Shown here: one piece after another, positions 5,365 to 7,938 of the stretch | Numbering within the stretch: position 1 is the stretch's first letter | Layout of the letters: every line of letters begins with the position of its first letter | Assembly: GCA_035415725.1 (NCBI GenBank) | Contig: DAOOGN010000001.1 | Coordinates: forward strand, 77,382 to 141,381 | Length of the DNA stretch: 64,000 bases | Direction of reading: 5' to 3' | Source of the DNA: Anaerolineae bacterium | Lineage (GTDB): Bacteria > Chloroflexota > Anaerolineae > B4-G1 > SLSP01 | Made by a program: the position numbers and the translations under genes | Notes under the pieces: model-generated | Seen by the model: the letters and a program-made list of their open reading frames with translations, nothing else | Databases searched by the model: none | Told to the model about the DNA's origin: nothing

Positions 5365-7938
5365 ATGTCGTCGATGAGCTTATCTCCTGGAAATCCAATG
5401 TTACAATTGCTGACCTGGGTAGCGGCCCTGGTGGAGGTGATTTTGTCCCTCTACATCCTGATCCTCGATGCGCGTCACACCACCAACCGTCATGTAAGCC
5501 TGCTATCTTTTCTCCTTTTCCTGAATAACGTGGCTATGGGGTCGCTGCTGGCGGCAGATAGCGCTGATCAGGCGCTTTTCCCGACGCAACTTTTTGCTGC
5601 CACAGTGCATGCGGTTGTTCCGGCGGCAACCGTTGCGGCGGTGGTGCTGTTACGACCGGCCTGGTTGCGGAATCGCTGGCGCTGGGTCTGGTGGCTGAAT
5701 TACCTGGCGCTAGCCTTGCCGATAGTTGCCACGGCGTCGGATGTTATTTTTGGAACGCGGATTTGGTACTTCGGCTTCACGGCAAGCACGTATGCCGGCG
5801 GTTATTTGCCTTTGCGCGACTATGTATCCCCGACATTGTATATGCCGGCCATTATTTTCTATGGCGCGGCGATAGGAGCGGCCCCTCTGATTCCGGTTTT
5901 CGGCGTACTGCGTGATAAACAATCCACTACCGAACAACGCCGGATGGCGCGCGTGATCATGGGCGGCACCCTTGTGATTTGGATCATCCAGGGCGGTTTG
6001 CACTCATTGCTCGATCCCGCCTTGTCGACTGTCCTGGTGACTCTTGTGCTTGCCGGCACTTACGTTTACGTTTTCTTCCGTCAGATGGTGGTTGAGCGGC
6101 GCGTGCAGCGCGGGCGACTGCAAAACCGTCTGACTGCTCTGCTCTTATCCATCATGCTGCCTGTTTTGATCATCGGGGTTTTGTTAGTCAGTACCCAGGC
6201 GCGGTTGCTGCTCAGGCGCAGTGAAACAAAGCGCCTCGGCACAGTAGCGAGTTTGATCGTGGGCGCCGTCGATATCAAGGCCAACGTTTCGATACAAGAC
6301 ATGCAGCAATTGATTCGTCTGGCCGTGGCCGAGATCGGCGACACCGGCGTGGTTTACGTGATCGACAGCAACGACCGGATGGTTTTTCATTCGGAGTTGG
6401 ATTTAAACCTGGTGAGTGCCGATGATCCCTTGCTCGACGTCAGCCATTTGCCGCCGGTGCTCGCCTTGCGTCAAGGGCGGGCGGACGAATTGATAATCTT
6501 CACGGATGACGCCGGCACACGTTGGTGGGCCTATGCTACGGCACTGGGTCTTCTGGAGCGGAGCGTGATTGTGCAGCAACAGGAAGCCGCCATCACCCAG
6601 GATATGCACAGTGTCCTGACATTCTCGTGGGTGGTGGTGGGGATAGGCAGTGCTGTGCTGCTCGTTTTGGGATTCTTGACGATCCGCTATTCCCTCTTGC
6701 CGATGGCGTCGTTGACCGCAACGGCGCAGGCTGTTGCGGGCGGCGATTTAACCCGCGTTGCCGCCATCGAGAGTGAAGATGAAATCGGCGCGTTGGCACA
6801 GGCTTTCAACCGTGTGACTGCCCAGCTCAATGATTTAATCGGCAGTCTCGAAGCGCGTGTTGCCGAGCGCACGCAGGAAGTCGAACGGCGCGCAGAATAC
6901 CTTGCCATTACCGCCAATGTAAGCCAGGTGGTGGCTTCTATTTTGGATGTCGACACACTGCTGAAGCGTGTGGTGCACCTCATTGCAGAACGATTCGGTT
7001 TTTACCATACCGGCATCTTCTTGCTCGATGACACCCGTGAATGGGCCGTCTTGCGCGCCGTCTCCTCAGAAGGTGGCGAGCGTATGTTGGCGCGTGGACA
7101 TCGGCTGCGGGTGGGAGAACAAGGCATCGTTGGCTATGTCGCCGGTTCGGCGCGGGCACGCATTGCCCTCGACGTTGATGAGGATGCCGTGTGGGTGCAA
7201 AACCCCGACTTGCCGGCCACGCGGTCGGAAATGGCTTTACCCTTGAGTGTGGGGCAAGAGGTGATCGGTGTGTTGGACGTACAGAGCCAGGAGCCCGAGG
7301 CTTTTGGCGCCGAGGACATCACCACCCTGCGCATTTTGGCCGACCAGGTCGCGGTGGCGATCCGCAACGCCGAGTTGTTCGAAGAGAGCCAACGGACGTT
7401 GCAGGAGTTGCAGAAATCATACGGCGAGGAAGTGCGCGAGGGATGGGCGCAGCGCCCTTCGCCGGTCGTCGGATACCGCTATACGCCGTCGGCCGTCGCG
7501 CCGCTGACCTCGAATGCCGCCTTACCGCTTCTGGAGACGCCCGCGCCTTACGTAGCGGTCGATAACACCTTAATCGTTCCCCTGCAAGTGACCGGCGGAC
7601 AGGCCTTTGGCACGTTGCGCATGCGCCGCGATGTGGCGCAACCGTGGGTCAGCCAGGACATTGCCTTCGTGGAACGCGCCACGCAGGAAATTGCCCAGGC
7701 GTTGGAAGTGGCGCGTCTGCTCGAAGAGAGTCGTCGCCATGCGGCTCGTGAAACGCAGGTCAACGAGATTGCCAGTCGTTTCTCGCGTGCTCTGGACGTT
7801 GACGTGGTGTTGCAGACGGCGGTGCGCGAGCTGGGGCGCTTAGCGGGCGTTGCCGAAGTTGCCGTGCAGCTTGATTTCCCCGAATCGATTTCGGATTTAG
7901 GCGCGGGTGCGGCGACGCGAACCCATCGTCAGGCATAA
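5365..7938 (+). CDS. 7TM-Cache-HAMP-GAF-GAF sensory protein, no output domain; paralog of the gene at 18654
   Basis: Seven N-terminal TM helices with the motif ILDARHTTNRHVSLLSF. An extracytoplasmic segment lies between two further TM helices. The HAMP region is EDEIGALAQAFNRVTAQLNDLIGSLEARVAERTQ. GAF1 reads ERFGFYHTGIFLLDDTREWAVLRAVSSEGGERMLARGHRLRVGEQGIVGYVAGSARARIA...NPDLPATRSEMALPL. A helical linker leads to a degenerate GAF2 and the tail. Confidence 0.88.
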   Translation: MSSMSLSPGNPMLQLLTWVAALVEVILSLYILILDARHTTNRHVSLLSFLLFLNNVAMGSLLAADSADQALFPTQLFAATVHAVVPAATVAAVVLLRPAWLRNRWRWVWWLNYLALALPIVATASDVIFGTRIWYFGFTASTYAGGYLPLRDYVSPTLYMPAIIFYGAAIGAAPLIPVFGVLRDKQSTTEQRRMARVIMGGTLVIWIIQGGLHSLLDPALSTVLVTLVLAGTYVYVFFRQMVVERRVQRGRLQNRLTALLLSIMLPVLIIGVLLVSTQARLLLRRSETKRLGTVASLIVGAVDIKANVSIQDMQQLIRLAVAEIGDTGVVYVIDSNDRMVFHSELDLNLVSADDPLLDVSHLPPVLALRQGRADELIIFTDDAGTRWWAYATALGLLERSVIVQQQEAAITQDMHSVLTFSWVVVGIGSAVLLVLGFLTIRYSLLPMASLTATAQAVAGGDLTRVAAIESEDEIGALAQAFNRVTAQLNDLIGSLEARVAERTQEVERRAEYLAITANVSQVVASILDVDTLLKRVVHLIAERFGFYHTGIFLLDDTREWAVLRAVSSEGGERMLARGHRLRVGEQGIVGYVAGSARARIALDVDEDAVWVQNPDLPATRSEMALPLSVGQEVIGVLDVQSQEPEAFGAEDITTLRILADQVAVAIRNAELFEESQRTLQELQKSYGEEVREGWAQRPSPVVGYRYTPSAVAPLTSNAALPLLETPAPYVAVDNTLIVPLQVTGGQAFGTLRMRRDVAQPWVSQDIAFVERATQEIAQALEVARLLEESRRHAARETQVNEIASRFSRALDVDVVLQTAVRELGRLAGVAEVAVQLDFPESISDLGAGAATRTHRQA

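Follow-up and report, generated by a model that had tools for sequence, protein, structure and literature searches.

A predicted GPCR-shaped seven-helix module, missed by current annotation, precedes Cache-type, HAMP and GAF domains in two paralogous receptors of an Anaerolineae gene array

Two paralogous genes within a co-oriented array

We analyzed a 64,000-nucleotide stretch of an Anaerolineae contig (hereafter the window). According to the ORF list, Pfam matches and shared C-terminal tails, the window carries a co-oriented array of 24 genes (19..60920, + strand), including the two genes studied here, which we refer to as A and B. Gene A (5365..7938, + strand; ORF list and Pfam) encodes 857 aa if read from the ATG at 5365, and more likely 854 aa from the ATG at 5374, since a GGAGG at 5359-5363 lies 10 nt upstream of the latter, and since the 854-aa product is on public record (in GCA_029548045.1) while the 857-aa form was not found there. 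Its domains follow the order 7TM, TM8, single-PDC ectodomain, TM9, HAMP, GAF, degenerate GAF and C-terminal stub. Gene B (18654..21605, + strand, 983 aa; ORF list and Pfam) overlaps the stop of its upstream neighbor by 4 nt, and its product is 100% identical to a public entry named 'MAG TPA: GAF domain-containing protein [Anaerolineae bacterium]'; the order in B is 7TM, TM8, dCache_1, TM9, HAMP, GAF, GAF and stub. By BLASTP, the N-terminal membrane regions of A and B are collinear and share about 35–37% identity (E 7e-51), and the remainders share 37% (E 2e-92), bearing out the original prediction that the ORFs at 5365 and 18654 are paralogs.

The array measures about 65 kb overall, and about 20 of its genes encode sensor-GAF-GAF-stub proteins without a catalytic output. 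The first array ORF in the window covers the 3' part of a gene for a HAMP-GAF histidine kinase, and the last array gene encodes a hybrid kinase of 2413 aa with about 10 GAF domains, HisKA, HATPase and two REC domains; upstream on the longer contig are found two REC response regulators and a 783-aa kinase. Input modules in the array include 7TM, MASE11-like, dCache, cytoplasmic LacI-type PBP and PAS, and MASE11-GAF proteins are present alongside A and B. Synteny shows that the array and the stub are kept in relatives at 67% and 39% identity.

Nine transmembrane helices

In A, the 7TM module together with a conserved cytoplasmic linker occupies 5395..6132 (+ strand, aa 11-256), as delimited by AF2, hydropathy, a positive-inside count and the family profile search described below; the collinear alignment places the same unit of B at 18681..19409 (+ strand, aa 10-252). 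The AF2 model of the A module (pLDDT 93.5, pTM 0.89) has helices at residues 11-34, 39-63, 67-96, 106-129, 156-183, 189-211 and 218-255, and a second model that includes TM8 and the ectodomain (854-aa numbering) reaches a pLDDT of 89.9 and a pTM of 0.82. Both models are of monomers; HAMP proteins act as dimers. Only about 10 residues precede the first helix (hydropathy, AF2). The N-terminus of the module is outside and its C-terminus inside, with K+R in alternate loops amounting to 13.15 versus 1.59 (100 homologs). Hydropathy, this loop bias and the two AF2 models thus agree on the seven N-terminal helices that had been proposed from the sequence of A and B.

The original prediction counted one more transmembrane helix after these seven. 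Later membrane passage was borne out, and the total is nine rather than eight: the 7TM module is followed by the conserved cytoplasmic linker, TM8, the ectodomain and TM9, and then by HAMP. TM8 of A (6133..6192, + strand, aa ~257-276; hydropathy peak 2.78 at aa 266) runs from inside to outside and lies within one continuous AF2 helix (249-301 in the 854-aa numbering). TM8 of B is found at 19410..19478 (+ strand, aa ~253-275), with a hydropathy peak of 2.99 at aa 264.

Ectodomains and cytoplasmic domains

Gene B carries a dCache_1 ectodomain (PF02743; 19488..20168, + strand, aa 279-505) that scores 66.2 bits against a Pfam cutoff of 45 and has TM8 and TM9 on either side, the whole ectodomain being about 245 aa long. 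Its closest solved sequences are the ligand-binding domains of PctC, PctB and PctA (E 1.4e-6 to 4e-3). Aligned to these, B keeps the Arg of 'TMR' and the Tyr of 'GYDPR' and has Gly in place of the Asp of 'YVDAAT', residues which we take to be the carboxyl- and amino-group-binding positions of PctA-type (dCache_1AA) domains. The ectodomain of A is shorter (6193..6615, + strand, about 140 aa, aa ~277-417). Its AF2 model comprises two helices, one of them long, along with five strands and a stalk helix, i.e., one PDC module with a single PDC/sCache-like fold (block pLDDT about 80-95, with one block near 60). It reaches 14.6 bits (E 0.025) against dCache_1, under the 45-bit cutoff; in BLASTP it aligns with the membrane-proximal half of the dCache of B, and its best PDB sequence match is 3lic_A, residues 183-259 (E 0.075). 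The extracytoplasmic segment of 230-260 aa that had been assigned to both proteins was therefore right for B and too long for A, and the suggestion of a Cache-like ectodomain directly before HAMP holds for the dCache_1 of B and the predicted single PDC of A. By the topology evidence the large loop is extracytoplasmic, and not cytoplasmic as would have refuted the original prediction.

TM9 and HAMP of A lie at 6616..6831 (+ strand; TM9 aa ~418-440, hydropathy peak at aa 431; HAMP aa 439-489), with HAMP (PF00672, 45.2 bits, cutoff 25) directly after TM9; those of B lie at 20208..20429 (+ strand; TM9 aa ~519-541, hydropathy peak at aa 533; HAMP aa 541-592, 44.1 bits against the same cutoff). Both proteins then carry GAF domains (PF01590/PF13185). 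GAF 1 of A (6943..7362, + strand, aa 527-666) scores 81.5 bits with GAF_2 and 67.7 bits with GAF; its second GAF (7462..7713, + strand, aa ~700-783) is degenerate, with the Pfam GAF profile matched only over positions 89-133, at aa 734-780. The two GAF domains of B (20538..21362, + strand, aa 629-768 and 830-903; Pfam) include a GAF_2 match of 87.4 bits and a GAF_3 match at aa 830-903. HAMP and GAF, anticipated in both proteins, thus exceed the Pfam cutoffs, and the cytoplasmic parts of A and B are indeed GAF-only.

The C-terminal stub is found at 7711..7917 in A (+ strand; stub HMM 84.2 bits, aa 780-848 of the 854-aa form) and at 21366..21539 in B (+ strand, aa 905-962, 39.0 bits). This element of about 60 aa, common to the array, consists of an inter-GAF linker helix and the opening helix and strand of a GAF domain, after which the protein stops; its consensus matches positions 1-26 of the GAF profile. 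Since the possible first strands of GAF 2 itself precede the Pfam-matched part, the stub seems to be the cut-off beginning of an additional, third GAF. A circularly permuted GAF formed by the stub and the second GAF was rejected on the B sequence.

Size, architectures and distribution of the family

An exhaustive profile search of 1.84 billion representatives returned 180 clusters at E<=1e-3 (152 cluster representatives at E<=1e-10), with all matches spanning about residue 1 to 255 and the module always N-terminal in a signalling protein, so that calling the architecture uncommon, as had been done, was fair. Inside the family, GAF-only is the usual architecture, shared by 127 of 141 long members; about 90% of the long members have the stub at their C-terminus, and a histidine-kinase core is found in six of 141 (about 4%; these HisKA-HATPase-ending members include P0025, P0027 and P0031). 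Among 50 members scanned, 48 contain HAMP, 44 GAF and 30 dCache_1, with Peripla_BP_6 and dCache_3 as alternative ectodomains. About 20 members have no ectodomain and run 7TM, TM8, short loop, TM9, HAMP, which leaves the 7TM module as their sole extracytoplasmic or membrane input. The module pairs with varied partners in the manner of sensor modules. Without its 7TM part, B aligns end to end with the product of gene 34737, a 7TM-less dCache-HAMP-GAF protein of the array (35% identity over 740 aa); by this alignment, the 7TM module is an addition to a complete two-TM sensor.

As judged by source names, on which the taxonomic range rests, the family is confined to uncultured Anaerolineae. A locus search with the A+B alignment returned one GTDB locus only (its patterns being too specific), and a word-indexed homolog search, whose index is weak on hydrophobic queries, gave no match for the 7TM region of A and one match for the family profile.

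Relation to known 7TM families

Using Pfam, we found no match for the 7TM module of A at E<=10 and nothing better than E 0.23 for that of B. The families named as candidates in the original prediction did not hold up: in A, B and 37 members, neither 7TMR-DISM_7TM (PF07695) nor 5TM-5TMR_LYT (PF07694) was matched at E<=10, nor were MASE11 (PF20969) and related MASE models; the N-terminal tail, as noted, is about 10 residues. Kinship to the MASE11-like modules of the array was rejected as well (hhalign probability 0.13%, with BLAST also against it). NCBIfam gave no N-terminal match save a chance CoxB hit (E 0.058), a family-profile search of all PDB sequences gave nothing at E<=10, and tblastn of the family consensus against plasmids gave no match.

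The only detectable relative of the family is HisKA_7TM (PF16927), with a match just under threshold: the family consensus reaches 26.6 bits (E 6.6e-6; gathering cutoff 28.6 bits) over profile positions 3-212 of 224, i.e., nearly end to end, and nine reversed or shuffled controls gave no such match. Individually, three of 37 members match HisKA_7TM (best E 4.5e-5), and it is the only recurrent Pfam match among them. Likeness to a known 7TM sensor family thus exists below threshold and through the consensus, to a family other than those proposed. By gathering score the family falls outside HisKA_7TM, while remote homology is plausible, and the profile evidence suggests that it is probably a distant branch. 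Like HisKA_7TM, A and B have seven helices at the extreme N-terminus (hydropathy, positive-inside, AF2); a histidine-kinase core, which also characterizes HisKA_7TM, is absent from both.

One may go further and regard the module as merely a divergent HisKA_7TM beyond the reach of the Pfam model, so that the proteins would be ordinary members of a known family that differ in their C-terminal half. The nearly full-length consensus match with clean controls speaks for this, as does the shared position of these 7TM modules at the N-terminus of signalling proteins; A, B and 34 of the 37 members, however, have no match at E<=10, and the family interposes TM8, TM9 and HAMP and lacks a kinase in 90% of its long members. 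We consider this reading a contender, though less likely than not.

In predicted structure, the module is a 7TM bundle with the helix arrangement of GPCRs, at 6-14% identity to eukaryotic GPCRs of class C and class A in the structural alignments. As the PDB profile search revealed no homolog by sequence, we treat the similarity of the model to GPCRs as a resemblance of fold, with homology not demonstrated and no G-protein machinery implied. What A and B present is an unannotated, GPCR-shaped seven-helix module ahead of an otherwise ordinary periplasmic-sensor/HAMP/GAF protein; among known bacterial receptors they are a rare variant, and no new type of system.

Conserved residues

The Arg/His motif quoted in the original prediction as common to A and B is present exactly, as LILDARHTTNRHVSLL in A (5458..5505, + strand, aa 32-47) and as LLLNSRHTVNRHISLL in B. 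It runs from the end of TM1 through cytoplasmic loop 1 into the start of TM2, so that it sits in a short cytoplasmic TM1-TM2 loop, outside the membrane core (mean K+R of loop 1 in the homolog loop count: 1.88). Family-wide, N35 (81%), N41 (89%) and R42 (86%) are better conserved than H38 (56%) and H43 (52%). With its cytoplasmic orientation and weakly conserved His residues, the motif is unlikely to be the ligand or proton site that had been suggested.

Going by conservation, Asp126, an invariant residue at the outer end of TM4, is a better candidate for a ligand site, together with outer loop 4, which is conserved as well; the two (5740..5805 in A, + strand) form a putative sensing face. Asp126 is conserved in 100% of 162 family members; the conserved positions of loop 4, which is poor in K+R in the homolog loop count, are T131, W134, Y135, G137, Y143 (87%), G145 and G146 (89%), the latter percentages again among the 162 members. 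One conserved cluster hence lies on the outer face (D126, W18, Y143, G145/G146) and another on the cytoplasmic face (N35, N41, R42, P98, W100 and, in the linker, G250, L252 and R255). These residues could instead serve folding or helix packing. We note that P98, P119 and the conserved Gly residues are typical structural positions.

Proposed mechanism and alternatives

We propose, with a rough probability of 0.6, that A and B are membrane receptors in which two sensory inputs are stacked ahead of one HAMP transmitter. The first input would be the N-out/C-in seven-helix module with its GPCR-like predicted bundle, and the second the Cache-type periplasmic domain between TM8 and TM9 (dCache_1 in B, a single PDC in A). 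The outer face of the 7TM module, near Asp126 and the W-Y-T-G...Y-x-G-G loop 4, may perceive a membrane-associated or small extracellular cue, a role to which architecture and conservation point. The resulting change would pass from TM7 through the basic linker (Q-M-x-S-E-R-R-x-Q-R-G-R-L-Q-x-R-L) to TM8, a route that we infer; since TM8 and TM9 also carry the Cache signal to HAMP, HAMP could integrate the 7TM and Cache inputs, and would then drive the GAF, the degenerate GAF and the C-terminal stub. With no enzyme domain in A or B, the output is presumably protein-protein: the stub/GAF region might act on partners, of which the histidine kinases and response regulators on either side of the array are, from gene order, the most plausible.

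Alternatively, only the Cache domain would sense, and the 7TM module would serve to anchor or localise Cache/HAMP receptors or to scaffold their oligomerisation (e.g. by packing many array sensors together). Pro, Gly and aromatic residues, which are typical of helix packing, occupy many of the conserved positions, the two-TM Cache-HAMP-GAF paralogs 13460 and 34737 work without a 7TM module, and it is architecture and conservation from which a sensing role of the module is deduced. Two TM helices, however, suffice to anchor such receptors, and anchoring alone would hardly account for the invariant acidic residue at the outer end of TM4 or for the conservation of an outer loop of 30 residues. 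In the roughly 20 clusters without an ectodomain, moreover, no part of the HAMP-coupled protein other than the module lies outside the cytoplasm. We hold this explanation to be unlikely, at odds of around one in five. A catalytic or transport domain fused to a sensor, such as a PAQR/ceramidase-like hydrolase or a small transporter, is highly improbable: no transporter or enzyme family is matched by sequence, the structural matches of this kind rank below many GPCRs at 4-7% identity, and the module is N-out with one invariant Asp and no conserved His cluster, whereas PAQR enzymes are N-in and need a conserved His/Asp zinc site, and a PAQR/ceramidase-like enzyme is rejected on these grounds.

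Beyond stacked sensing in A and B, the roughly 20 output-less stub sensors together with the bracketing kinases suggest a wiring of many inputs to few kinases, which was not described in the literature that we searched. A more specific version treats the whole array as a 'sensor battery': about 20 different input modules would have given up catalytic outputs and would all signal through the truncated-GAF stub, docking with it on the GAF repeats of the flanking kinases, while the 7TM module would be a GPCR-fold gate of the Cache/HAMP unit and provide two-input logic in a single polypeptide. This version is speculative and we rate it as unlikely; if it were true, dozens of signals would feed into one or two phosphorelays.

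Of all inputs of bacterial signalling, sensor modules embedded in the membrane are understood least, and the 7TM module delineated here escapes the current Pfam and NCBIfam models. Its fixed place upstream of a complete Cache/HAMP unit makes for an unusual stacking of two sensors on one transmitter, and its invariant outer-face Asp, with a confident GPCR-like model, offers clear mutagenesis targets. The surrounding array may matter more than the module. As the family is rare and apparently limited to uncultured Anaerolineae, its general impact will be modest unless the array mechanism is confirmed.

Comparison with known systems

HisKA_7TM resembles the family as an N-terminal seven-helix membrane module of signal-transduction proteins, and is without a known ligand in PMC5847659 and PMC6944256. 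Pfam describes it as a kinase N-terminal region, whereas only about 4% of the long members of our family carry a kinase core, and the family module never joins the cytoplasmic domains directly, as TM8, an optional ectodomain, TM9 and HAMP lie between. Receptors of the BtsS/LytS type share seven TMs, a periplasmic N-terminus and the sensing of small molecules, and we propose them as a mechanistic model of how Asp126 and loop 4 may work; in the 7TM kinase BtsS, pyruvate is bound by TM-helix residues on the periplasmic side (PMC10653868). In BtsS, the signal goes directly to GAF and kinase, without the extra two-TM Cache/HAMP unit of A and B. The two-TM dCache_1-HAMP receptors, including PctA, PctB and PctC and the products of genes 13460 and 34737, resemble B after its 7TM module. 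Compared with these receptors, A and B add a whole 7TM module and a conserved linker before TM8, A has lost the membrane-distal PDC module, and both have GAF-GAF-stub as their output in place of an MCP signalling domain or a kinase. Finally, MASE-type domains are, like this family, multi-TM sensor modules that combine promiscuously and are identified by the signalling outputs with which they occur, and MASE10 is likewise always followed by HAMP (bioRxiv 10.1101/2021.11.05.467447); the family differs from them in sequence, as seen in the Pfam and hhalign results given above.

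Gene structure and domain composition

Genes A (5365-7938, plus strand, 857 aa) and B (18654-21605, plus strand, 983 aa) are both found in the ORF list and, as predicted originally, are paralogs: BLASTP aligns their N-terminal membrane regions at 35% identity (E 7e-51) and the remainder, from ectodomain to C-terminus, at 37% identity (E 2e-92). Three in-frame ATGs (5365, 5374 and 5398), each used or usable as a start, lie at the beginning of A, and because of the spacing of a GGAGG at 5359-5363 (10 nt upstream of ATG 5374), the true start is probably 5374 rather than 5365. The 854-aa product is present in the public record (GCA_029548045.1) and the gene call on another contig gives 846 aa; no public record matched the 857-aa form. 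The public protein with 100% identity to B is named only 'GAF domain-containing protein [Anaerolineae bacterium]'. The adjoining 1442-aa gene is listed with a TTG start (21499) inside the end of B, an overlap of 107 nt (21499-21605); translation probably begins further downstream, close to the Met of 'MATQSRRRKK'.

Pfam finds the expected HAMP (residues 439-489 of A, 541-592 of B) and GAF (A 527-666, B 629-768) domains, with a weaker second GAF in both proteins, and places dCache_1 above threshold in B only (279-505; 66.2 bits, cutoff 45). The first ~255 residues of A and B have no Pfam match even at E<=10, and an NCBIfam search of this region gave none either.

Membrane topology and ectodomains

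By hydropathy, the first 240 residues of A and B contain seven hydrophobic stretches, followed by a basic linker, a very hydrophobic TM8, the ectodomain and TM9. AlphaFold2 likewise models residues 1-256 of A (37-sequence alignment) as seven helices (pLDDT 93.5, pTM 0.89), so the seven N-terminal helices of the original prediction hold, but the total is nine rather than eight. In 100 homologs, the average K+R count is 13.15 for the linker together with loops 1, 3 and 5, and 1.59 for the N-terminal tail together with loops 2, 4 and 6. This positive-inside signal argues strongly for an N-out/C-in module, with the ectodomain outside, in agreement with the extracytoplasmic placement proposed earlier, and HAMP inside.

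A length of 230-260 aa had been given for both ectodomains, which fits B (~245 aa) but not A (~140 aa). In the AlphaFold2 model of A residues 1-510 (854-aa numbering, 60 sequences; pLDDT 89.9, pTM 0.82), TM8 extends as a long periplasmic helix, followed by a helix, five strands and a stalk helix that leads into TM9 and HAMP, and the A ectodomain is thus modeled as a single PDC (sCache-like) fold. By BLASTP it aligns to the membrane-proximal half of the dCache of B, and its best match among solved sequences is the proximal module of 3lic (E 0.075). The closest solved sequences to the B ectodomain are the PctC, PctB and PctA ligand-binding domains (E 1.4e-6 to 4e-3).

A rare family of 7TM modules

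When 1.84 billion cluster representatives were searched exhaustively with a profile of the 7TM module, 180 proteins matched at E<=1e-3 (152 at E<=1e-10), every match spanning about residue 1 to 255. Where the source gives a name, it is Anaerolineae, Anaerolineales or Chloroflexota; products are named as GAF-, cache- or HAMP-domain proteins, and precomputed Pfam domains leave the N-terminus uncovered. Among 50 members scanned, 48 have HAMP, 44 GAF and 30 dCache_1, while different ectodomains (dCache_3, Peripla_BP_6) or kinase domains occur in a few. The architecture of P0025, P0027 and P0031 reads 7TM-(TM8/TM9)-HAMP-GAFn-PAS-HisKA-HATPase. Of the family members with at least 700 aa, 127/141 end in the stub (a C-terminal module of ~60 aa) and 6/141 have a kinase core.

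Members sort into three classes by the number of residues that separate the 7TM end from HAMP: about 280-340 aa (dCache, like B; about 110 members), about 180-200 aa (A-like; 6 members) and about 40-70 aa (ectodomain-less; about 20 members). Given these classes, a Cache domain between TM8 and TM9 is an optional insertion, and some members have the 7TM module as their sole non-cytoplasmic input.

Asp126 (protein A numbering), three residues from the outer end of TM4, is invariant in 162 members, among which P119 (95%), Y30 (92%), P98 (90%), N41 (89%), G146 (89%), R255 (89%), Y143 (87%) and R42 (86%) are also strongly conserved. Conserved positions form an outer cluster (W18, D126 and loop 4, T..WYTG...Y.GG) and a cytoplasmic one (loop 1, N..NR; the K-P-x-W end of TM3; the linker after TM7). 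The Arg/His-rich motif noticed earlier (A residues 32-47) is found exactly in both paralogs; since loop 1 falls in the cytoplasmic cluster, it is a cytoplasmic-loop motif, and with its two His only 52-56% conserved, the suggested ligand or proton role is unlikely, whether as an extracellular ligand site or as an intramembrane proton site. It may instead be part of a signaling interface.

The surrounding sensor array

A and B, the only genes in the window with the 7TM module, lie in an array of 24 co-oriented plus-strand genes (19-60920), several with 4-nt overlaps. Without its 7TM module, B can be aligned over its whole length with the product of gene 34737, a 2-TM dCache-HAMP-GAF protein (35% over 740 aa); the module has therefore been added at the N-terminus of what is otherwise a complete classical receptor. 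The array also holds MASE11-like-GAF genes, cytoplasmic LacI-type PBP-GAF genes, dCache-HAMP-GAF genes, large PAS/GAF proteins and two PF04392 binding-protein genes. About 20 of its proteins are sensor-GAF-GAF proteins without enzymatic output that end in the stub (consensus ARLxEDTQRRAAREQ...EIT.RIRE.LD.E.VL.TA..E....L.L....VRL), directly followed by the stop codon (e.g. 7711-7917, 21366-21539, 29892-30098 and 33319-33525). The stub is covered by no Pfam family; it matches internal GAF starts weakly and GAF profile positions 1-26. It looks like the helix that links two GAFs, joined to the opening helix and strand (~26 positions) of a GAF, and may serve as a shared output or docking element.

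MASE11-like six-TM modules are present in nine array genes other than A and B. Pfam recognizes three (genes 1686, 3610 and 31807); the other six (25824-26513, 30043-30792, 36898-37617, 38665-39354, 44772-45491 and 46249-46998) have no Pfam match, are linked by BLAST to each other and to the three, and appear to be divergent MASE11-like sensors. A relationship of the 7TM module to these modules was rejected (no BLAST links; hhalign probability 0.13%). LacI-type periplasmic-binding-protein (PBP) folds (Peripla_BP_1/3) fused to GAF are found at 7954-10035 (no Pfam-detectable GAF in this one), 10165-13374, 15802-18657, 21499-25827 and 27240-30125. They show no clear membrane-spanning region and appear to be cytoplasmic sensor domains of the sugar type that feed into the same GAF-stub output. 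The PF04392 (ABC_sub_bind) genes (33603-34727 and 48052-49137) directly precede the TM-HAMP-GAF genes 34737 and 49137, which suggests that they encode binding-protein co-sensors.

A longer public contig (L006, 1-10004) shows what precedes the array: two response regulators of a single domain each, and a histidine kinase of 783 aa with HAMP and GAF, whose 3' part is window ORF 19-1689. The last gene of the array (53679-60920, plus strand) encodes 2413 aa with HisKA, HATPase, two REC domains and about ten GAFs. Related MAGs (L001-L004) also have the array. The gene order around a B ortholog is kept in a relative at 67% identity, and in a distant MAG, where the 7TM is 39% identical, its gene again lies amid at least 10 co-oriented stub-ending genes.

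Proposed mechanism and alternatives

To the observed anatomy, topology bias, family, modular architectures and synteny we add a proposed mechanism, in which the 7TM module would act as a second sensor. D126 and loop 4, the cluster on its outer face, may perceive a membrane-associated or small extracellular cue, in a way similar to pyruvate binding by BtsS (below), and TM7 and the conserved basic linker would pass the signal to TM8. As TM8/TM9 would carry the Cache signal too, HAMP would integrate both inputs. The downstream GAF-GAF-stub part has no catalytic domain, and its output is presumably protein-protein, most plausibly toward the kinases and regulators bracketing the array.

The families suggested originally (7TMR-DISM_7TM, MASE, 5TM-5TMR_LYT) have no Pfam match in A, B or 37 members, and the only recurrent Pfam similarity is to HisKA_7TM (PF16927; 3/37 members, best E 4.5e-5). 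The family consensus matches its profile positions 3-212 of 224 at E 6.6e-6 with 26.6 bits, just under the Pfam cutoff of 28.6 bits, and the match is absent in reversed, locally shuffled and globally shuffled controls. Remote homology is therefore probable, though Pfam membership is not satisfied; that the module is simply HisKA_7TM is a rival, less likely classification, which would not conflict with the proposed mechanism. A role purely as anchor or scaffold is unlikely, as ectodomain-less members exist and the outer Asp is invariant, and an enzyme or transporter is highly improbable, with an unfavorable topology and no catalytic motifs.

Comparison with known systems

A multi-TM sensor module on a bacterial signaling protein is of a known kind. 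What is new is a rare 7TM module that current Pfam and NCBIfam models do not detect, belonging to Anaerolineae/Chloroflexota (going by the source names seen), always upstream of a complete TM-(Cache)-TM-HAMP unit, and with GAF-GAF-stub as its dominant output, within a very large array of catalysis-free sensors. The searchable literature yielded no account of either the module or the array; the array and its common stub are more surprising than the module itself. HisKA_7TM is listed as an archaeal histidine kinase sensor domain, with no ligand given (PMC5847659, PMC6944256). In the 7TM kinase BtsS, pyruvate is bound via residues on the periplasmic side of the helices (PMC10653868).
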